Assembly: GCA_050298595.1 (NCBI GenBank)
Contig: JBNKUM010000098.1
Coordinates: 1 to 64,000, forward strand
Direction: 5' to 3'
Source: Gammaproteobacteria bacterium
Lineage (GTDB): Bacteria; Pseudomonadota; Gammaproteobacteria; GCA-001735895
DNA: 64,000 nt
The notes below the pieces were generated by a model. The model had not been told where the DNA came from, ran no database searches, and saw nothing but the letters and a program-made list of their open reading frames with translations. Both the position numbers and the translations under genes were made by a program. Positions within the stretch are counted from its first letter, which is position 1, and the number at the start of each line of letters is the position of its first letter. Shown one piece after another: positions 28,704 to 48,354 of the stretch.

Positions 28704-28871
28704 AGCATGAAGGGGGTTTCACAGGTCGATATTTTAAAGGGGCGCAATCATACTGGGCTTCTTAAGCCCTGCCAATCGGTGTTTAATGCAGATATGTTGC
28801 AATATCTGCATAAATTTCTCTTCTTAGTGCTACCACTTAACGACATTATCCATTAAAATCCACGCCTTATT

Positions 28872-28958
28872 GCCGGGGTGGCGGAACTGGTAGACGCGGC
28901 GGATTCAAAATCCGCTGGTGGTAACACCTTGGGGGTTCGAGTCCCCCCCCCGGTACCA
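28872..28958 (+). tRNA. tRNA-Leu(CAA)
   Basis: GCCGGGG acceptor stem, D-loop GGTAGAC, anticodon arm GCGGA-TTCAAAA-TCCGC, long variable arm, GTTCGA, encoded CCA; 87 nt. Confidence 0.95.
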
Positions 28959-29048: not shown

Positions 29049-29675
29049 ATGAAACGTCTAACTACTATAATCATCGTCTGCTTCACCTTCCTTATCAGTT
29101 CAAATGCCCAGTCCCAGATGCCGGGTTATGGTTATGCCCAGCCGTATCAGCCCTACCCTAATTACGCACAGCAAACGCCAGCGCAGTTACTGGAAATGGG
29201 TATTCGGGTATTACAGAACTACCTGAACTCAGGTGAATTTGATAATCCCGAAAAGGTGCTTAACTTCCTGGATAGCCAGATGTCTCAGTTTTTCGATTTT
29301 GAACAGATGGCTCAATGGGCCTCTGGATATCACTATAACCGTATGAATTCGGCGCAAAAATATATCTTTCAGTCGAATCTGAAGAAAATGTTTTTTGCTG
29401 CCTTTGCTCGAATCATCACTGCCTATGGCGACGCTCAACCTAAGGTTGAATTTTTACCCCCCAGAAGACAGGGTTACAACGAGGTTTTAGTGACAGCTCG
29501 CGTTATCCCTACCGATAGCTACCCTATTCGAATTGATTTCCGTTTTATGCAAGGCCCTGGTGGCTGGAAGGTATTTGATGTAGGCACCAATGGCAACAGT
29601 GCGGTCGCCTACTATCGAGCCTACTTCAATAACCTGATTCGTAGTCGCGGATTTAACTCTCTACTCCAACAATAG
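29049..29675 (+). CDS. MlaC/Ttg2D-like periplasmic lipid-binding protein
   Basis: Signal peptide; FDFEQMAQW and IDFRF...GWKVFDV..NGNS....YR..F motifs typical of the Ttg2D/MlaC fold. Confidence 0.72.
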   Translation: MKRLTTIIIVCFTFLISSNAQSQMPGYGYAQPYQPYPNYAQQTPAQLLEMGIRVLQNYLNSGEFDNPEKVLNFLDSQMSQFFDFEQMAQWASGYHYNRMNSAQKYIFQSNLKKMFFAAFARIITAYGDAQPKVEFLPPRRQGYNEVLVTARVIPTDSYPIRIDFRFMQGPGGWKVFDVGTNGNSAVAYYRAYFNNLIRSRGFNSLLQQ

Positions 29676-29688
29676 TCGACAGACATCC

Positions 29689-30633
29689 ATGGATACGCAT
29701 CGCCTGCTCATCAAACTTAGTCAGCGCATACTCATTCAGTTTGCACTAACAGTTATCATCGCTATTGTCGCCATTGCATCAAACCATGAATTCCTGAGTC
29801 ATTTTTATCTGGAAAACCAGCAAACTAATACTGGCATCATTATTAACAGTATAATTGCTGGCATATTTGGTATCGGCATTATCAACCTGTTATTACTCTT
29901 ACTACGTTATCAGCGTGAAGAAAATGCACTGACTGGATTTGTAGAAAATATTGAAGCTATCCGTAACGATCCTACCGAAAACTTAAATGCGCATAGTTTG
30001 ATCGTAAAGCGTTTTGCCACCATGAAAGCCATCAACTCGGCACATGGTGAAATTAATCACAACGCACTGGCTGCGATGCTGACAGCCGATGAAGGTACGC
30101 GACTGGGGATCGTACGTTTTATCAATAACATCCTGATACTGACGGGTGTATTCGGTACCATCGTTTCTCTTTCTATTGCTCTTATAGGCGCTTCGGACCT
30201 GATTGAATCGGCCTCTGCCGGTTTAAGTGGGATGGGCCTGGTTATCCACGGTATGTCAACAGCACTATCTACCACCATAACGGCTATCGTCAGTTATGTG
30301 ATATTCGGTTATTTTTATCTGCGCGTTAAAGACGTACAAACGCATTTACTCAGTGGCATCGAACACCTGACTTCGGTCTATCTGATTCCACGCTTTGTGA
30401 AACGTAGCGAAGATATCATCAATCAAATGAGCGGGCTGATCAAAGGCATCATTCGTGCTACTGAAAAAATGTCTGAGACGCAGGAAATCTATCACTCATC
30501 AGCTACCACCTTAATGCAATCCATCAATAGCAATAAGCAACAGATGGATAAGCTGGGCAGTGATATCGTTACTATTAAGAAACTTTTGCGTGATGGTTTC
30601 CGCCTGCCAGCGCCTCCTCCAGGACAGGAATGA
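29689..30633 (+). CDS. MotA/TolQ/ExbB proton-channel family protein
   Basis: Four hydrophobic helices; LILTGVFGTIVSL and GMSTALSTTITAI match the channel hairpin; helical C-terminal tail. Confidence 0.8.
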   Translation: MDTHRLLIKLSQRILIQFALTVIIAIVAIASNHEFLSHFYLENQQTNTGIIINSIIAGIFGIGIINLLLLLLRYQREENALTGFVENIEAIRNDPTENLNAHSLIVKRFATMKAINSAHGEINHNALAAMLTADEGTRLGIVRFINNILILTGVFGTIVSLSIALIGASDLIESASAGLSGMGLVIHGMSTALSTTITAIVSYVIFGYFYLRVKDVQTHLLSGIEHLTSVYLIPRFVKRSEDIINQMSGLIKGIIRATEKMSETQEIYHSSATTLMQSINSNKQQMDKLGSDIVTIKKLLRDGFRLPAPPPGQE

Positions 30634-30645
30634 GCCCTGGTATAA

Positions 30646-31635
30646 ATGAGTAATTTCCCTACCATAGGACCTCACTCTTTAGATTCAGAAAACGAAGGAT
30701 CCTTCTGGCCGTCATTTACTGACATCATGATGGTGGTGGTATTGATTTTTCTGATGGCAACTAGCTTACTGATCGTACGTAACTGGCAACTGGTTGCTGA
30801 GCTACAGCAAAGTATTGAAGCTGAAAAGCTGGCTTCAGAAATGATCGAATCCACCTCGCAGGAAAACGCCACGCTAGAAGAACGTTTGATTAATGCTGAA
30901 CAGTTAAACTCCATTTTGCGTTTACGCATCATGGAAAAAGATGAACTACTAGCTAAAGCCAGGCAACACGAAGAGCAACAACTGCTTGCGATCAATGCGT
31001 TAGAAAGCGATAAGGCCCGACTCAATCAAACCATAGAAACATCTCGCTATGAACTTACCGATGCGCGCCAGAAAATCAATGAGATTAACGCACAGTCTGA
31101 AGTATTTGCTCGACAACTTGCCGAGCTAAAACTCCAGTTAGAAAAACAGAAACAACTCACCGATGCTGCACAGCAGGAACTGGAATTTGCCAATGCTGAA
31201 ATAGCGGCACTTAATACATCAGCAGAACAGAAGCAGTTGAGTATAGATTTACTGGAGCAGGAAAAAGTAGAATACAACCGCCAGTTACTAACGCTGCGAG
31301 GCGAGTACGACGTGGTGAAATCCAAATACGACCAGTTAATCAAACCTGCTCGTAGCGCCAGGGGAAAATATGTTGCCGAAGTCTATTACGTGAAAGAAAA
31401 AGGCGGCGAGGTTTATCGTTATAAGGAACCCATCAACAAAAACTACCAGAACCTGTCGCTGGCTGAGGTTGAAAAACGACTGGATAAGCTCAAACAGGAA
31501 AAAGGCCAGGACCTGTATGTTAAAATCATTATCCCGAAAGATAGTGGCCTTACATATAACGAAGCCTGGAACTTTATGAGGTCATTGCTGCAGAAGTATG
31601 ATTATTACTATCAGGGTAATGAATTAGAGGAATAA
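30646..31635 (+). CDS. MotB/ExbD-like small motor subunit with a long coiled coil
   Basis: FWPSFTDIMMVVVLIFL single TM with Asp26; about 190 aa of E/Q/K/L heptad-like sequence; C-terminal domain resembling ExbD/TolR. Confidence 0.7.
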   Translation: MSNFPTIGPHSLDSENEGSFWPSFTDIMMVVVLIFLMATSLLIVRNWQLVAELQQSIEAEKLASEMIESTSQENATLEERLINAEQLNSILRLRIMEKDELLAKARQHEEQQLLAINALESDKARLNQTIETSRYELTDARQKINEINAQSEVFARQLAELKLQLEKQKQLTDAAQQELEFANAEIAALNTSAEQKQLSIDLLEQEKVEYNRQLLTLRGEYDVVKSKYDQLIKPARSARGKYVAEVYYVKEKGGEVYRYKEPINKNYQNLSLAEVEKRLDKLKQEKGQDLYVKIIIPKDSGLTYNEAWNFMRSLLQKYDYYYQGNELEE

Positions 31636-36711: not shown

Positions 36712-37518
36712 GTGAAAACACTTGCCTTATTAGCAGTCATCGTCATCCTTGCTGGAGCTGGGTATTACGGCTATACCAACTACCAGCAGCAGCAATTACT
36801 GGAACAGTCAGTGGCCCGCATGGAACAGGAAAAACAGGCCCTGCAAGATGCACAGGCAAGCAAAGATATCTTAGCGCTGAACCAGTTTATCGCCGATCAC
36901 CCCCAATCCAACTGGTTAGAAAAAGCAATCTATGAACGGGATAAACTGGCCTACCATCAGGCTACGGAAACAAACCGGATATCAGCGCTGGAAAAATTCA
37001 TTTCCCAATATAAAGGTAGCCAATGGATAACACAGGCTCGAAATCGTTTACAGCGACTTCAGCAGGAACAGAAACTTCGAGCTGATATTGAACGAAAGCA
37101 GCAACAATTAGAGATTCAGCGCCAAGAGATGGCAAAACAACAATCAACTACCGGCGAACTCGAAGAAAAAACCACTGACAACCCCATTGCAAGCACAACT
37201 CCAACTTCAACCCCCGCCCCAGCAAAAACCAGCAGCAGTTTGAGTAGTAGAGACCGGGTTAGCCGTGCTCTGGCGATTTATCAGAAACAACGACAACAGG
37301 AGCAGCATACTGATACTGAACAACAGCAAGAAGATCTTAAAGAAGAACGGATAAAGAAGCGCTGTCTACAGATCAAGGATCAGATCGCGCAATTCAATAA
37401 TAGAAGAATCAAGTGGTATGATCTGGATGGTAGTGGAAAACGAGTCTATCTGAATAAAAAGCAGGTCAGCATCAATAGAAAACGTCTTAGGGAAGAATAC
37501 AATCAAAACTGTGAATGA
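36712..37518 (+). CDS. Membrane-anchored hypothetical protein with helical repeats and a coiled coil
   Basis: GGGAG RBS and GTG start; N-terminal TM; two F...[HY]..S.W...A repeats; C-terminal Cys pair. Confidence 0.7.
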   Translation: MKTLALLAVIVILAGAGYYGYTNYQQQQLLEQSVARMEQEKQALQDAQASKDILALNQFIADHPQSNWLEKAIYERDKLAYHQATETNRISALEKFISQYKGSQWITQARNRLQRLQQEQKLRADIERKQQQLEIQRQEMAKQQSTTGELEEKTTDNPIASTTPTSTPAPAKTSSSLSSRDRVSRALAIYQKQRQQEQHTDTEQQQEDLKEERIKKRCLQIKDQIAQFNNRRIKWYDLDGSGKRVYLNKKQVSINRKRLREEYNQNCE

Positions 37519-42673: not shown

Positions 42674-44704
42674 TTGAAAATAAATGTATTTCTCAGTTTG
42701 ACGTTATTAAACGTTTTACCTGTTTTTGCTGACATTTCACAGACTATTGACTATGAGGCAGGAAACGACTTCTTTGGCGAATCTTCTGTAGTACTTACTG
42801 TATCACGTATGCATAAACCACTTGATGAGTCGCCTGCTTCGGTGAGCATTATCGACCGCCAGATGATTCACGATTCTGGCGCACGTCAGATAGCCGATAT
42901 CTTTCGTATGGTTCCCGGGTTTATCGTTGGCTACTATTCAGGGAATGAACCCGTAGTAACCTATCAAGGCTTAGGTAATAGATATCAGCGACAGTTGCAG
43001 GTATTGATCGATGGCCGATCGGCATTTATTCCTTCATATGGTGGTGTGCCGTGGACAAACCTGCCTCTACTTTTAGAAGATATTGAACGTGTTGAAATAA
43101 CTCGCGGACCCAATGCCGTAACTTATGGTGCTAACGCATTTCTGGCCACAATCAATATCATTACCCGTCACGCTGCTGAGGATGCAGGCAGCGAAGTCAT
43201 ACTCACTCAAGGTTTGGGTAAAAACGAATCGACCAGTGATTTCTATGCCCGTTACGGAAACAACTATGGTGATCTAGACTGGCGTATTTCGGCCGGTCGA
43301 GAAATGGCTGATGGTTATGAAACGGTTAATGATTCCAGCGAAGTGGAGAAAATCAATATACGAGCTGATCTTTTAACCCAATATAATCAATTTTGGACTA
43401 TTCAGGCTGGCCTGAACCAAACAAAAGCTGGCCGTGGTGATGGAAGCTTTTCAAACATCTTTCGTGACGAGGATGTTAGCAATAGCTACCAGAACATAAA
43501 ATGGGAAATGGTAGAAGATAATACTAACACCACAGCATTACTCACACACACTAGGCAGGAAGTGCAAGACATATTCAAATCAGGTGCATTAAATGAATTA
43601 GCAGCAGTTCTTGAAAATCACCCAATAAACTCATTGGCCATTCTGAGTCTACCTCCTTTTTATACTGATATAGATTTTGGTCGAAAATCGGATAGGCTGG
43701 ATTTTGAGATATATCAAAGCTTGAATCTGGACTCGAAAACCAAGCTGTTATATGGGGGGAGCCTGCGTAAGGACGAGGTTATTTCTAATTATCTATTTAA
43801 TGATGAATTGGCACATACTGTTGATACCAAACGCTTATTCAGTAGTGTCGAATGGAAACCACAAAATGATCTCATTTTAGATTTTGGTTTTATGCTGGAG
43901 GATACAAATTATACCGACAACGAGATTTCGCAAAGAATATCTTTACTAAAAAAGTTTGGTCAACACCGACTGAGATTAGTATCATCAACAGCTAAAAGGA
44001 ACCCCATTTTGTGGGAACTAATAGGCGAAACCCAATACATCGTACCAGTACCAGAACCATTCAATAAAGGCCTCCCATATTTAAGGTGGCGCGGAAATGT
44101 CAATCTCAACCCGGAAAGTATTAATTCAACTGAAATTGGATTATTCACAGAATATTTAAATAGACAGCTGACGACCGATTTTAAGCTGTTTCATTATAAA
44201 ATTAGAGATCAAATAGATGATAAGGCGCTAACACTTGCAGTTGATCCTTCAAATAACATTAACATAGAACAGACTTATGGTACCTCGATAAATGATGGGG
44301 ACACCATTGTAAACGGGCTGGATCTATCTTTTAACTTTAGTCCTGAATATAAACAATATCGGCTATTTGGAGGGATGAGTATTGTAAAAGTAAAAGAGAG
44401 CATTGACGATTTTGCAGAATCATATCCAGACCATACAGCATACCTTGGAGGTCATTATAACTTAAGTCCGTATCACCAATTATCTGGCGTTTTTTATATC
44501 GTGGATGGTATGACCTGGACAGGCATAAAAGGAAGCCTGGATGAATATAAAAAACTTGATTTACGATATCAATTTATTATTGACCCCGTCCATGACCTTA
44601 AACTTGAGCTAATAGGACAGAATTTACTCGAAGACTATAGTGACTTCGAGCCAGATAAATCCTGGGGTGATTCATACTTCTTAAGGATTTCTGGTAGGTT
44701 TTAG
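42674..44704 (+). CDS. TonB-dependent outer-membrane receptor
   Basis: Signal peptide from TTG at 42674 (AAGGGG RBS); plug motifs SPASVSIID and DIERVEITRGPNAVTYG..A....INIIT; GQNLL; terminal Phe. Confidence 0.9.
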   Translation: MKINVFLSLTLLNVLPVFADISQTIDYEAGNDFFGESSVVLTVSRMHKPLDESPASVSIIDRQMIHDSGARQIADIFRMVPGFIVGYYSGNEPVVTYQGLGNRYQRQLQVLIDGRSAFIPSYGGVPWTNLPLLLEDIERVEITRGPNAVTYGANAFLATINIITRHAAEDAGSEVILTQGLGKNESTSDFYARYGNNYGDLDWRISAGREMADGYETVNDSSEVEKINIRADLLTQYNQFWTIQAGLNQTKAGRGDGSFSNIFRDEDVSNSYQNIKWEMVEDNTNTTALLTHTRQEVQDIFKSGALNELAAVLENHPINSLAILSLPPFYTDIDFGRKSDRLDFEIYQSLNLDSKTKLLYGGSLRKDEVISNYLFNDELAHTVDTKRLFSSVEWKPQNDLILDFGFMLEDTNYTDNEISQRISLLKKFGQHRLRLVSSTAKRNPILWELIGETQYIVPVPEPFNKGLPYLRWRGNVNLNPESINSTEIGLFTEYLNRQLTTDFKLFHYKIRDQIDDKALTLAVDPSNNINIEQTYGTSINDGDTIVNGLDLSFNFSPEYKQYRLFGGMSIVKVKESIDDFAESYPDHTAYLGGHYNLSPYHQLSGVFYIVDGMTWTGIKGSLDEYKKLDLRYQFIIDPVHDLKLELIGQNLLEDYSDFEPDKSWGDSYFLRISGRF

Positions 44705-44710
44705 CGCATT

Positions 44711-45649
44711 ATGCATGGAATAACCTCATATTCAAGGAAGGCATATCACCGACTGATTTTCTTCTGGCTATGGCTATGGTTATTGCCACTAACAGTAACA
44801 GGCAGTGAAAATACAGTTCTTATTATAAAGAGTAACGAAAACAGTTTTTTCAATCAAAGCATTGAAAAACTAATCAACATGACTGAAGCAAATGTTAAAT
44901 TTAATACCGTCAATGCGAAAATATACGAAAGAAACCCTCAGAATTATCAACCAGATATTATCATCACTCTGGGATTCAAGGCCGTTCAATTAACCCTCCA
45001 GATAGAGGATGACATACCGATTATTCACAGTTATATCACTGAGTTTCAGCTGAAAAATCACGATATGACCAAACAACACTACAGCATTCTATTAGAACAA
45101 CCCATTGAACGGTATTTACATTTTATTAAGAGATTACTAGCCATTAAAAAAGTAGGCCTGATCAAAACCAGAGATAACAGCTATGGTCGTAAAAAATTAG
45201 AACAACTGGAAAAATCCAATGCTGTGCAGATTAATCAATATATATTTAATCCGGATGAAAACCCAAATCCGGTAACGACTGTGCGCAATATATTACAAAA
45301 AAATGATGTATTGCTAAGCCTCCCAGAACCCACGGTTTATAACCATCAAACACTGAAAGGGATTCTACTGGCTTCCTACAGACTTAACAAACCGGTGATC
45401 AGCTATTCACCCGCGCATGTCAATTCTGGAGCTCTTGCAGCTATTTATACTTCACCCTCTCAAATTGGTACGCAGATAGCGAGTATGCTGAATAAATTAC
45501 TGGAAAGTAAATTAACCCCTAAAGATTACAAAAATTACGCCAACGATTTTGAGATAAAGATAAATCGGCAGGTAGCACATTCATTAAAAATTGAATTACC
45601 TTCCGATGATGACATTATCAGTCAAATGCGATCAGGAGAATCAAAGTGA
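44711..45649 (+). CDS. Orphan ABC-type periplasmic substrate-binding protein
   Basis: Signal peptide; DVLLSLPEPTVYN, SGALAAIY, FEIKINRQVAHSL motifs; no permease or ATPase nearby. Confidence 0.75.
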   Translation: MHGITSYSRKAYHRLIFFWLWLWLLPLTVTGSENTVLIIKSNENSFFNQSIEKLINMTEANVKFNTVNAKIYERNPQNYQPDIIITLGFKAVQLTLQIEDDIPIIHSYITEFQLKNHDMTKQHYSILLEQPIERYLHFIKRLLAIKKVGLIKTRDNSYGRKKLEQLEKSNAVQINQYIFNPDENPNPVTTVRNILQKNDVLLSLPEPTVYNHQTLKGILLASYRLNKPVISYSPAHVNSGALAAIYTSPSQIGTQIASMLNKLLESKLTPKDYKNYANDFEIKINRQVAHSLKIELPSDDDIISQMRSGESK

Positions 45650-48354
45650 GGCATCACAGCATCAAGTTACAGATTCTAATGGTTATGATGATCCCTGTAT
45701 TTATGACTGCAGCTATACTGTCTTACATCCATGTTAACAACAGCATCACTCAGGCTGAAAAAATTCTGCAGAGCAAAGGAGAAATTATCGCTAAACAGAT
45801 AGCAGGTGCCACAGAATTTGATCTCTTCTCTGGTAATTTTGATCATATTCAACATCTGTTAAATAGATCAATTAATACTAACGATATCGTCTTTGCATCT
45901 GTATATGATAGCAAGGGCAATCAGATAGCAAAAGTCAGCGGGACTGAATATTCTGCCGCTAACAGTTCACATTATTTATATTATCGTTATCCAATTCAAA
46001 CTCAGAATCTGGAAGTTACAGATGTATTCAGCACGCAAATAGATAATTCACAAGATGGCTTCCGTAACCTGGGTTGGGTGCATTTATATATCTCACGTCA
46101 GCGCCTGGATAAAAGTAAGATTTCAATTTACCATGAAGCACTGATTGTTTTCTGCGCCACCATGTTACTAGCCATTGTCCTTACTTTTTTTATCAGCCGT
46201 CGAATTACACAACCAGTATTTACACTGATAGATTATTTAAAAAAAATTGAAACCGGACATCTGGGCGAAGTAATAAAACCGGTTGAAAAAAATGAAATTG
46301 GCGACGTGCAAAAAGGCTTTAATAGCATGTCGCAATCCTTGCTTGCTAACCGCATGCAACTGGATCAAAAAATAAAAACAGCCACTCTCGATTTAATGAA
46401 TGCGATTACTGACCTGGAATATAAAAACAGGGAAATTTCACTGGCCAGAGACGAAGCTCAAAATGCTAATAAGATTAAATCACAATTTCTGGCGAATATC
46501 AGCCATGAAATTCGAACACCAATCAATGGTATCAAAGGTTTTGCCAACTTACTGACACAGACAGGATTAACTTCACAACAACGTCGCTATGCCGAGATTA
46601 TTAATCAATCCACTTCTGATCTAAGCAGTATCGTGAATGAAGTTCTGGATTTCTCCAAGATAGAGTCCGAAAAAGTCGACATTATCCAGGGGCACTTTGA
46701 TTTATATGAACTGGTCGAATCAACCCGCGATAGCCTGTTTACAGCAGCTATGGATAAAAATATCGACCTCTATCTCACTATCTACAGTGATACCCCACAA
46801 TACCTGACAGGGGATAAATTGCGTTTAAAACAGATATTGATCAACCTTATTGGAAATGCGATTAAATTCACTGATACCGGTTACGTAGAAATCGTGGTCC
46901 ATCTGGAAGAACAAACTGATCAACAGGTCATTATTAAATTCAAAATCAGAGATTCAGGAATTGGTATCTCCAAGGACGAGCAAAAACAATTATTCCAGGC
47001 TTTCAAGCAGATTGAGTCTGACAGTAATCGTCGATTTTCGGGGACAGGGCTAGGACTGGTTATATCAAAAAATCTTGCCCGACTGATGGGAGGAGAAATT
47101 ATTTTAGATAGCGTCACTAACTTTGGCTCCTTATTCACCCTTACCTTACCTTTCACTCCCAGTGAAGATGCCGAGTCTGAATTGCAGCCATCTGATGATA
47201 TACAGACCTGTCTGTTGATAGCATTTGGTCAAAAACCCCTGAATGAAATTCAGTCACTTTATAACCGGGCCGGATTCAACACCGAATTTATACTGATAGA
47301 GCCTGAGATGGATATACATAGAATCCAGTCACAGATATCACAGAACCTCGTTTATATTGATTGTATTGTTCTTGACTTGAGACACGCAACCTTAGAACCA
47401 GATGACCTTTTTGACAAAACTATGCAGAATGAAAAACGCATTATTGTCATGCATTACGATTTATCTTTGACTCAATTAGCAAAACAAAGCCGCTATGAAT
47501 TCATCTCGGTGATTAACACCTCTAAGAATTTACACAGACTGCTATCTCATGGTGAGCCGGTCATTGATGAATATATTAAACCCTCTCGTAAACCGGAAGC
47601 TATCCCCCACAGTGTACTTATCGTGGATGACAATCCTATCAATTTAGCTTTAGCTGTTGAACTTGCACAGATGTGGGGACACCACCCCTTTGAAGCAAGT
47701 AATGCTCAACAGGCCATGCAATTATTTCGCATCAAAAATTTTGACTTAATTCTATTGGATATTCAGATGCCAGAAATAGACGGTGTAAAATTAATGCAGA
47801 TGATGCGAGAAGAAAAGCCAGATCTAAAAACCCCGATTGCAGCTATTACGGCAAATATTCTAGACAGTGAAAAAAAGCGCTTACTGGGACTGGGTTTTGA
47901 CGCCTACTTCAGGAAACCAATCGAAGAAAATAAACTTCGGGCTTTACTCGATAAAGCTGAAGTGAGCGATGAAATGACTCTAGAAGAAATACCTGCTGAA
48001 AATTTTGAATTATCAGTAGATCAGGCTTTATCCTTTAAACTGTCTTCCAGTAACAAGGTATTAATGAACCAGGTATTCAGCATGCTGCTTAAGGAGATCC
48101 CCTCTTACCAGCAAAGTATCCAGCAAGCGACTGAGCAAAAATACCTGGCTGATTTTGAACGAATTATGCATAAACTACATGGTGTTACCTGCTACGCAGG
48201 GTTACCAAAACTAAAACAATTGTTAGATGAGTACGAGACGGTTAAAAAGAATGCCGCTCATAAAATTCCATCTATCGCACAAAGTATCAGTGAAGAGCTG
48301 GCAGAGATCGATAAAATTCTCAAAACTCAGAATATTGATGGAACGGTAGTTTAA
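45646..48354 (+). CDS. barA: Hybrid sensor kinase, BarA/GacS type
   Basis: Two TM, HAMP, FLANISHEIRTPING, GTGLGLVI, receiver LLDIQMP, Hpt HKLHGVTCYAG; divergent from cysM/rlmD as for barA/gacS. Confidence 0.82.
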   Translation: MRHHSIKLQILMVMMIPVFMTAAILSYIHVNNSITQAEKILQSKGEIIAKQIAGATEFDLFSGNFDHIQHLLNRSINTNDIVFASVYDSKGNQIAKVSGTEYSAANSSHYLYYRYPIQTQNLEVTDVFSTQIDNSQDGFRNLGWVHLYISRQRLDKSKISIYHEALIVFCATMLLAIVLTFFISRRITQPVFTLIDYLKKIETGHLGEVIKPVEKNEIGDVQKGFNSMSQSLLANRMQLDQKIKTATLDLMNAITDLEYKNREISLARDEAQNANKIKSQFLANISHEIRTPINGIKGFANLLTQTGLTSQQRRYAEIINQSTSDLSSIVNEVLDFSKIESEKVDIIQGHFDLYELVESTRDSLFTAAMDKNIDLYLTIYSDTPQYLTGDKLRLKQILINLIGNAIKFTDTGYVEIVVHLEEQTDQQVIIKFKIRDSGIGISKDEQKQLFQAFKQIESDSNRRFSGTGLGLVISKNLARLMGGEIILDSVTNFGSLFTLTLPFTPSEDAESELQPSDDIQTCLLIAFGQKPLNEIQSLYNRAGFNTEFILIEPEMDIHRIQSQISQNLVYIDCIVLDLRHATLEPDDLFDKTMQNEKRIIVMHYDLSLTQLAKQSRYEFISVINTSKNLHRLLSHGEPVIDEYIKPSRKPEAIPHSVLIVDDNPINLALAVELAQMWGHHPFEASNAQQAMQLFRIKNFDLILLDIQMPEIDGVKLMQMMREEKPDLKTPIAAITANILDSEKKRLLGLGFDAYFRKPIEENKLRALLDKAEVSDEMTLEEIPAENFELSVDQALSFKLSSSNKVLMNQVFSMLLKEIPSYQQSIQQATEQKYLADFERIMHKLHGVTCYAGLPKLKQLLDEYETVKKNAAHKIPSIAQSISEELAEIDKILKTQNIDGTVV

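Follow-up and report, generated by a model that had tools for sequence, protein, structure and literature searches.

Ion-driven motors of the 5:2 type power flagella, Ton uptake, the maintenance of the envelope by Tol-Pal, gliding and Zorya defence, and, to our knowledge, every known type of them requires a separate adaptor to reach its target. The present work concerns two genes, further called A and B, that may encode a motor carrying its own adaptor. They were found in a gammaproteobacterial stretch of 64,000 nucleotides (positions 1 to 64,000 of contig JBNKUM010000098.1, assembly GCA_050298595.1; below referred to as the window). The gene of subunit A (29689-30633; 314 aa) is followed by the gene of subunit B (30646-31635; 329 aa) and preceded by a gene encoding a 208-aa paralog of the MlaC family (29049-29675). 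According to the list of open reading frames (ORFs) all three lie on the plus strand and are separated by gaps of 13 bp (29676-29688) and 12 bp (30634-30645), in agreement with the initial annotation of the locus. With a probability of roughly 0.6, A and B represent an undescribed, self-transducing 5:2-type branch of the ExbB/TolQ-ExbD/TolR ion-driven motors, in which subunit B possesses its own rod and head.

Among the described systems, the closest to this pair are TolQR and ExbBD. The common features are the core fold of A and its transmembrane motifs, the P-x-x-D-[IV]-M helix of B with its Asp, the fold of the B head, and the tight spacing of the genes in the order A, then B. However, in comparison with TolQ and ExbB, subunit A has an extra N-terminal transmembrane helix and a long C-terminal helix, while B, in comparison with TolR and ExbD, has a coiled coil of about 188 residues between the transmembrane helix and the head. 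Also in contrast to the Tol and Ton systems, the pair comes without a TonB or TolA gene, both subunits fall under the Pfam cut-offs, and the profile of the head finds its own family only.

An axle subunit that transmits the movement by itself is not without precedents, as is evident from the shaft of GldM and from the proposed TPH-vWA axles. GldM is described as forming an 18-nm periplasmic shaft, which was proposed to rotate (PMC9389320, as far as its available text goes). The GldLM/PorLM systems of Bacteroidota share with our pair the concept of a dimeric axle subunit that is itself the periplasmic shaft; however, the shaft of GldM is a string of four globular domains and not a coiled coil, it belongs to a different phylum, and its GldKN partner ring has no counterpart here. 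Neither subunit gave a match to the GldL or GldM families of Pfam at E values up to 1. The TPH-vWA proteins, as presented in the available part of a computational proposal (PMC12204202), have an ExbD/TolR-like transmembrane helix with the Asp, replace TolR/ExbD and carry an effector domain of their own. In contrast to these proteins, which act with a TolQ-like partner, the head of B has the TolR/ExbD fold and not that of vWA, and a long coiled coil of the canonical kind serves as the spacer; coiled coils are not mentioned in the available part of that proposal. A 2025 survey of MotAB relatives notes generic ion transporters of unknown function, and the word "coiled" does not occur in its available text (PMC12505986). 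Full-text searches of the literature, to which supplements that could list members of the family did not belong, gave no published description of this architecture, which upholds the initial designation of the pair as undescribed.

Subunit A is an ExbB/TolQ-type protein with one extra N-terminal transmembrane helix and a cytoplasmic heptad-like tail. Its AlphaFold2 model, based on 24 homologues (predicted local distance difference test score, pLDDT, 78.5), has four hydrophobic helices (residues 10-31, 47-72, 143-167 and 183-209), about 70 cytoplasmic residues and, at the C-terminus, one further helix (residues 240-304, pLDDT 53-73). The best rows of a Foldseek search with this model were all ExbB/TolQ (probability 1.00, E from 4.7e-3). 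In the VIA-align search, rows 1-17 were also exclusively ExbB/TolQ (Z 11.8-13.4, 190-219 residues, model residues 32-250), and the lower rows were occupied by ZorA (Z 10.4-11.0) and then by MotA/PomA (Z 8.1-10.0). Since ExbB and TolQ align only from residue 32 of the model on, the membrane helix preceding it is an addition to the common core. As to the profile comparison by hhalign, A aligned with the five ExbB/TolQ proteins of the same genome at E 1.6e-4 (probability 50.7%) and with its three MotA proteins at E 0.2 (probability 0.3%). In the Atlas, A lies closest to a cluster named MotA/TolQ/ExbB (0.98), and the Pfam family MotA_ExbB (PF01618) is carried by 21-31% of the members in the clusters nearest to A. 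A homologue of A from a distant clade, in which the MlaC-like gene is located downstream of the pair, exceeds the cut-off of this family (24.5 vs. 22.9 bits).

The hairpin of the third and fourth transmembrane helices (A residues 143-209; 30115..30315, plus strand) bears the motifs G153-V-F-G-T157 and G188-M-S-T-A-L-S-T-T196. These correspond to the channel-hairpin signatures noticed from the outset, LTGVFGT (residues 151-157) and GMSTALSTT (residues 188-196). In the hhalign alignments they are paired with G-L-x-G-T and G-I-S-x-A-L of the paralogs, and none of the motif residues varies among the 24 family sequences; the hairpin is presumed to be the ion pathway.

Subunit B starts with a transmembrane segment (residues 19-45; 30700..30780, plus strand), in which S-F-W-P-S-F-T-D26-I-M-M-V is followed by a hydrophobic helix. 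The FWPSFTD motif, to which attention had been drawn because of Asp26 (codon 30721-30723, plus strand), is present, and F20, W21, P22, F24, T25, D26 and M28 are invariant in all 20 B sequences compared. By hhalign, the helix matches those of the genome's own ExbD/TolR proteins with E 1.1e-4, its Asp being aligned with their Asp, and the match to MotB is weaker (E 1.3e-3). The assignment of A and B to the ExbB/TolQ- plus ExbD/TolR-type modules with a membrane Asp is thereby sustained, for a divergent pair, by hhalign, by the ranking of folds and by the invariant D26.

The transmembrane segment is followed by the coiled-coil rod (residues 46-233; 30781..31344, plus strand), about 188 residues or about 28 nm long. 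One unbroken heptad register, comprising about 25 heptads, extends from approximately residue 53 to residue 228 and agrees with the stretch of about 190 heptad-like residues proposed initially. Its periodicity is strongest at 3.51 residues, and the hydrophobicity of the two core positions, averaged over the family, amounts to 0.5-0.9. Conservation of the sequence itself is confined to roughly the first 55 residues of the rod, beyond which only the heptad pattern is kept. As a measure of rod length, the spacing between the Asp and the conserved K-P-A-R proline (208 in B) was compared in 185 distinct homologues. In 174 of them (range 180-257) the offset from 208 is a multiple of seven, in ten it is 7n+4 (the classic stutter), and only one homologue shows another value. 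Such steps of seven indicate a single uninterrupted coiled coil that has to preserve its seam. With the coiled-coil rise of 0.1485 nm per residue, the common rods are about 24, 28 and 29 nm long, and the longest reach about 45 nm. An antiparallel, hairpin-like rod was considered and judged unlikely, because the indels of 7, 14 and 21 residues, which are common in single arms, would bring the arms of a hairpin out of alignment. The rod would most simply be a parallel dimer of B.

A long rigid rod of quantised length could also be expected of a passive envelope strut or spacer, where A and B would merely anchor a coiled-coil ruler in the inner membrane, the more so as the use of ions by this motor is predicted by homology. 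We consider this explanation improbable, since the family throughout keeps Asp26, the two channel motifs of A (G-x-F-G-T and S-T-A-L-S-T-T) and its two periplasmic loops invariant, which would not be expected of a passive anchor.

The head of B (residues 234-323; 31345..31614, plus strand) is recognizable by the invariant motifs P-x-x-S-G-L-x-Y-x-E-A-W and D-Y-Y. It was modelled separately by AlphaFold2 (17 sequences, pLDDT 73.6), and a wide fold search with this model over 48,161 chains placed TolR first and second and ExbD fourth. By VIA-align, the top six rows are all TolR/ExbD, namely TolR of E. coli (5by4, Z 8.3), TolR of H. influenzae (2jwk, Z 7.4) and the periplasmic ExbD entries 8p9r, 8vgc, 8vgd and 8pek (Z 7.1-6.4), and unrelated folds start at Z 5.7; the best superpositions comprise 73/74 residues at 2.3 Å. 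Foldseek returned no row for the head at E values of 1e-3 or lower, and the best score of the head in the Atlas search was 0.84, under the lead level. The Pfam search of B detected no OmpA or MotB domain, and this result, together with the structural ranking of TolR/ExbD (Z 8.3-6.4), rules out a C-terminal domain of the OmpA/MotB type and speaks for the ExbD/TolR fold that had been supposed instead of it. The profile of the head, run over 1.84 billion representatives, retrieved 371 clusters, 341 of them with E values not exceeding 1e-10. Throughout the 150 rows listed, the matched region stops no farther than about 35 residues from the C-terminus of proteins that are mostly 290-540 residues long, and no protein with the ordinary ExbD layout was found among these rows.

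The family is widespread. A word-indexed search revealed 3112 A-like and 1422 B-like clusters, all named either "hypothetical" or by automatic mislabels, e.g., "chromosome segregation ATPase". A relative of A is encoded in at least 580 genomes taken one per species (580 of 599 pattern matches). The best 80 of these at least 580 belong nearly all to uncultured marine Gammaproteobacteria, including an Olavius symbiont, Cellvibrionaceae and Thiotrichaceae. In an evenly drawn sample of the class (400 genomes of 321 genera, below the class sample) the head of B was found in 56 genomes of 39 genera, with a single match in each of the 56; one of these genomes, G319, is unpublished. Gene A is located directly upstream of gene B in all 80 related loci, in 18 of 18 genomes of other families and in three of three further loci. 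The preservation of the pair in 80/80 related loci and in the 18 more distant genomes means that this arrangement is more than a matter of chance. The neighbours of the pair are ordinary ones, such as genes of cystathionine enzymes, queA, tgt, hisBH, dtd and HemN, and no recurrent TonB, TolA, Pal, flagellar or Zorya partner was seen beside it in the loci examined. The absence of FliG, TonB, TolA and Zor partners from the locus in the window, stated in the initial annotation, was confirmed as well, its neighbours being tRNA-Leu, queA/tgt and a branched-chain amino-acid ABC (ATP-binding cassette) transporter.

Two observations on the sampled genomes should be mentioned here. Three contigs from metagenome-assembled genomes named Acidimicrobiia, Urechidicola and Polaribacter (loci L068, L070 and L077) also carry the pair; in the tree of A they nest within a gammaproteobacterial clade (Shimodaira-Hasegawa-like approximate likelihood ratio test, SH-aLRT, 100), and they are probably mis-binned. 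A metagenome-assembled genome of the same genus as the organism studied (G003; 86% complete, 3% contamination) contains two full-length copies of B, on contigs C186 and C34, which are 71% and 69% identical to B and could reflect either a real duplication or a mixed bin.

The head of B might be thought to act in the same way as that of ExbD. Three of the matched ExbD entries (8p9r, 8vgc and 8vgd) are complexes with TonB or D-box peptides, and the head superposes on them with Z 6.8-7.1 and a root-mean-square deviation of 2.3-2.5 Å over 71-73 residues. Since, to judge from the titles of 8p9r and 8vgc, the domain of ExbD binds TonB by capturing one of its strands, a similar capture of a partner's strand by the head of B is a reasonable guess. 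The pair could also be one more energiser of the Ton or Tol type, whose head would capture a strand of a TonB-like, TolA-like or other partner encoded elsewhere and energise an outer-membrane transporter, all the more so as the same genome holds, separately from the pair, TolQRA and four ExbBD sets with TonB-like genes. However, each of the canonical ExbBD sets already adjoins its own TonB- or TolA-like gene, a TonB-dependent receptor is encoded near the pair in just one of the 18 distant loci, and the domain of ExbD sits on the motor and not 28 nm away from it, which makes such an additional energiser quite improbable.

Several results weigh against the assignment of A and B to a motor of the ExbB/TolQ-ExbD/TolR type. 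Subunit A scores 15.3 bits with PF01618 (18.1 bits in the genome-wide search), under the cut-off of 22.9. Subunit B has no match to Pfam ExbD (PF02472) at E values up to 1, and the search of the genome with this family recovers six other genes, B not being among them. HMMER profiles of A and of the B head, compared with the sequences of the PDB, gave only coiled-coil or chance rows and no motor, and the hhalign comparison of the head with the ExbD/TolR proteins of the same genome was null (probability 0.2%). By the guidance for VIA-align, Z of 13 for a helical bundle and of 8 for a small domain are borderline, so the case for the folds of A and of the head is based on their consistent ranking and not just on the Z values. 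The recurrent neighbours of the pair are otherwise ordinary metabolic genes. The longest rods, of about 45 nm, exceed the usual widths of the periplasm, and rods up to this length fit poorly with a simple spanner standing perpendicular to the membrane. As to the membership in the superfamily, A lacks the curated PF01618 score but has the ExbB/TolQ fold and the Thr-bearing motifs, and B lacks the PF02472 match but has a single N-terminal transmembrane helix with the conserved Asp and a head of the TolR/ExbD fold.

With ZorAB the pair shares the 5:2 motor superfamily, a helical cytoplasmic tail of A, the above-mentioned structural similarity of A to ZorA and weak PADLOC matches, of ZorA2 (E 1.2e-3) and of ZorB1 to the N-terminal stretch of B (E 4.8e-6). 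These matches and the membership in the MotA/ExbB superfamily are the grounds on which an anti-phage defence system of the Zorya type, or a flagellar or gliding stator, could be suspected. However, according to the available text of PMC11946911, a wall-binding domain is part of ZorB, and ZorA extends a tail of about 70 nm, whereas here the long element belongs to B and is predicted to be periplasmic, the tail of A has about 65 residues, and B is devoid of an OmpA-type wall-binding domain. The NCBIfam model of ZorB1 gives 17 bits against a cut-off of 400, the hhalign probability with MotA is, as indicated above, 0.3% in a genome that has three MotAB pairs elsewhere, and both families rank below ExbB/TolQ; the pair is thus placed outside ZorAB and MotAB, a possibility left for checking by the initial annotation. 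Furthermore, no ZorC/D-like or other defence gene occurs among the annotated neighbours, the synteny is conserved and of a housekeeping kind, and the tree of A separates the taxonomic families into distinct clades. We find the Zorya and stator explanations highly improbable and reject them in view of the missing OmpA domain, the score of ZorB1 far under the cut-off, the result with MotA and the housekeeping context.

The tail of A deserves separate consideration. It is a C-terminal heptad-like helix (A residues 240-307; 30406..30609, plus strand) with a periodicity of 3.58 residues, which ends in L-L-R-[ED]-G-F-R-L; R301, G303, F304, R305 and L306 are invariant in the 24 sequences. Longer tails arise by a tandem duplication of 43 residues. 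The lengths of the A tail and of the B rod rise together (loci L057, L084, L086, L101 and L109): tails with a DVQT-to-GFRL spacing of 112-131 are paired with long B rods (236-324) in eight of eight loci, and where the spacing is 88 the rod does not exceed 229 in 73 of 74 loci. This co-lengthening of two elements, although they are expected on opposite sides of the membrane, may be due to lineage history or to a sensor-like coupling.

Such a coupling would be in line with a trans-envelope sensor that follows the logic of Zorya in a housekeeping role, i.e., the rod and head would report the state or the distance of the wall or outer membrane, engagement of the head would let the ion flow spin the ring of A, and the A tail with its G-F-R-L tip would signal to a cytoplasmic target encoded elsewhere. 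The conserved heptad-like cytoplasmic helix with its invariant C-terminal motif, the weak ZorA2 and ZorB1 matches and the pairing of long tails with long rods in 8/8 loci are all compatible with it, and the tail of ZorA is reported, in the available text of PMC11946911, to pass the motor signal to cytoplasmic effectors. However, the tail of A comprises 65-108 residues, as compared with about 70 nm in ZorA (same source), no conserved cytoplasmic partner gene adjoins the pair in any clade, and the covariation of lengths may reflect only two or three lineage events; a sensor of this kind therefore seems unlikely to us.

The gene preceding the pair was initially recognized as MlaC-like, and its 208-aa product does match Pfam MlaC (PF05494) with 93.3 bits against a cut-off of 26. 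At the same time, it stays below the NCBIfam equivalog model of MlaC (NF011697; 25.5 bits, cut-off 195), and its best NCBIfam row, HpnM, is also below the cut-off (67.4 vs. 160.1 bits). The canonical MlaC of the same genome (186 bits in the Pfam MlaC search of the genome) is encoded on another contig, C115, next to a 100-aa ORF, read as MlaB-like without a family search, while the gene under consideration lies outside any mla operon (mlaFEDCB). The failure with the equivalog model and the presence of the canonical MlaC elsewhere in the genome lead us to regard it as a second, divergent paralog. Its product consists of a hydrophobic N-terminal segment, predicted to be signal-like, a conserved Pro/Tyr/Gln-rich stretch and the MlaC domain. 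The domain and the signal-like N-terminus are common with MlaC of the Mla phospholipid transport system, whereas the Pro/Tyr/Gln-rich N-terminal extension, the failed equivalog and the position in a separate paralog group set it apart. In the tree, the pair-linked copies of both gene orders described below, together with two unlinked copies, are separated from 13 canonical MlaCs (SH-aLRT 95).

The MlaC-like gene is located directly upstream of A in 13 of the 80 related loci, which form one clade (SH-aLRT 89); in ten others, belonging to a separate clade (SH-aLRT 99), the order is A-B-X-MlaC-like, where X is a gene discussed below. In four of the five members of the latter clade that lack the MlaC-like gene, the contig ends just past B. 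The order paralog-A-B recurs in three genomes of two other families, and A of these genomes is only 40-53% identical to the queries, subunit A (P0002) and A of locus L110. In the class sample, the scores with the profile of the paralog group drop from 130.1 to 114.6 bits, and the canonical MlaC of the genome studied scores 100.4 bits; at a limit of 130 bits, the paralog is present in 40 of the 400 genomes. The motor was found in 20 of these 40 and in 36 of the other 360 genomes (odds ratio 9, Fisher p 5.6e-9). When families are counted, 13 have both, 12 the paralog only, 21 the motor only and 194 neither (odds ratio 10, p 1.6e-6).

These figures should be taken with caution. The limit of 130 bits was chosen after the gap in the scores had been seen, and the p-values overstate the case, as related genomes are not independent. 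The paralog is missing in 36 of the 56 genomes with the motor, and the motor is missing in 20 of the 40 genomes with the paralog. Seven genomes of the same family that have A and B hold only the canonical MlaC, and in G036 the paralog and the pair are 630 kb apart, which argues against a core role of the paralog. The surroundings of the unlinked paralogs in G036 and G033 are uninformative (porins, a sulfur-globule protein and the like). The paralog is an accessory and not a core part of the system, since each of the two so often occurs without the other. Of the link proposed initially, the association itself holds, as the same paralog subfamily adjoins the pair in two orders and co-occurs with it, whereas the absence of the paralog from 36/56 motor genomes does not agree with an obligatory partnership; the link is real but facultative.

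Protein X, encoded between B and the MlaC-like gene in the distant clade, is a conserved secreted protein of about 175 aa with several Cys residues, which ends in R-Y-K-F-Y. It is present in ten of the 80 loci (L110:8992-9393, L111:9003-9536, L116:8987-9529 and seven more); it belongs to no Pfam family, and no match to it was found in the genome from which the window comes.

As for the self-transducing motor, its possible action may be outlined as follows. The data show the homology and fold of A, of the transmembrane helix of B and of the head, the unbroken rod of quantised length, the strict pairing of A with B, and the association with the MlaC paralog in statistics and in position; that the complex is 5:2, that it rotates and that B dimerises in parallel is what we infer, and so are the head's target and the role in the cell. 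Subunit A would form a pentameric ring and subunit B a dimeric axle, with the proton-binding Asp26 facing Thr157 and Thr195/196 of A. Beyond the membrane, the chain of B would run into a rigid coiled coil of some 25 heptads and about 28 nm, made of two strands that are probably parallel. The rod would put the head at about 24-29 nm from the membrane, that is, at the cell wall or at the inner face of the outer membrane; with the head placed distally in this way, B alone would do the job of TolR plus TolA or of ExbD plus TonB and could be, as suggested in the initial annotation, its own force transducer. The flow of ions would turn A against B, and the rod and head would either be anchored distally or pull or turn a distal target. 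The pair would be a self-contained housekeeping module, joined in some lineages by a dedicated MlaC-like periplasmic lipid carrier.

The MlaC-like partner points, weakly, to outer-membrane or lipid homeostasis. A lipid-related role is plausible in view of the role of Tol-Pal, which has been tied to outer-membrane lipid homeostasis (PMC11889096 and bioRxiv 10.1101/109884, in their available parts). Some neighbours of the pair are also related to lipids or to the envelope. A cyclopropane-fatty-acid synthase gene adjoins it on the opposite strand in 22 of the 80 loci (including L020, L022, L024 and L085), and one locus each has a phospholipase A1 gene nearby (L013:9344-10345), a patatin-like lipase gene (L142:4599-6071), and, immediately following B, genes of an RND pump and of its fusion protein (L021:3722-7980); in respect of an envelope role these neighbours are suggestive only. 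By analogy with the capture of TonB by ExbD, one possible partner of the head is the MlaC paralog, whose N-terminal extension is conserved. It could be imagined that the motor energises the handling of outer-membrane lipids, with the head using strand capture to dock either the MlaC-like carrier or some distal partner and the proton motive force driving the loading or unloading of lipid. We offer this version of the proton motive force-driven lipid trafficking, an idea already voiced in the initial annotation, as a speculative one, to which we assign a low probability. If true, it would supply, in one defined machine, the energised step that has so far been lacking from the ATP-driven Mla pathway and from the lipid phenotype of Tol-Pal.

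With regard to the surroundings of the locus, a tRNA-Leu(CAA) gene, identified by ARAGORN (28872-28958, plus strand), is located 90 bp upstream of the MlaC-like gene and occupies the same position in nine of nine near-clade loci tested. This is a conserved synteny, which does not imply that the tRNA gene belongs to the system. Just upstream of it there is an inverted repeat with a 10-bp stem and a T-rich tail (28786-28811). The queA and tgt genes lie farther upstream on the opposite strand, and the branched-chain amino-acid ABC transporter is encoded downstream of B. Consensus scans revealed no sigma-70-like site on the plus strand upstream of the MlaC-like gene and no terminator-like site past the gene of subunit B. 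The G+C content of the locus (0.44-0.45) is ordinary for the window. It falls to 0.37-0.39 at positions 44001-48000, compared with 0.42-0.48 elsewhere in the window, and this segment is possibly an island. One more ORF of the window (36712-37518) encodes a protein of 268 aa, which belongs to no Pfam family; its N-terminus is hydrophobic, and a long stretch of it is rich in Gln and Glu.

In general, the pair is a real, widespread and unnamed variant of the Tol/Ton-type motors with a built-in coiled-coil shaft and a facultative MlaC-like partner. It would be a compact, two-gene version of these machines, the axle subunit of which would be its own rigid, length-quantised shaft. With relatives of A in at least 580 species genomes, it would lend itself, as a simple system, to studying how rotation or pulling is transmitted across the periplasm. 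The recurrent, optional pairing with one particular MlaC paralog gives a testable handle on lipid homeostasis dependent on the proton motive force. Finally, naming the family would correct many annotations, as all the members seen so far are designated hypothetical or mislabelled.

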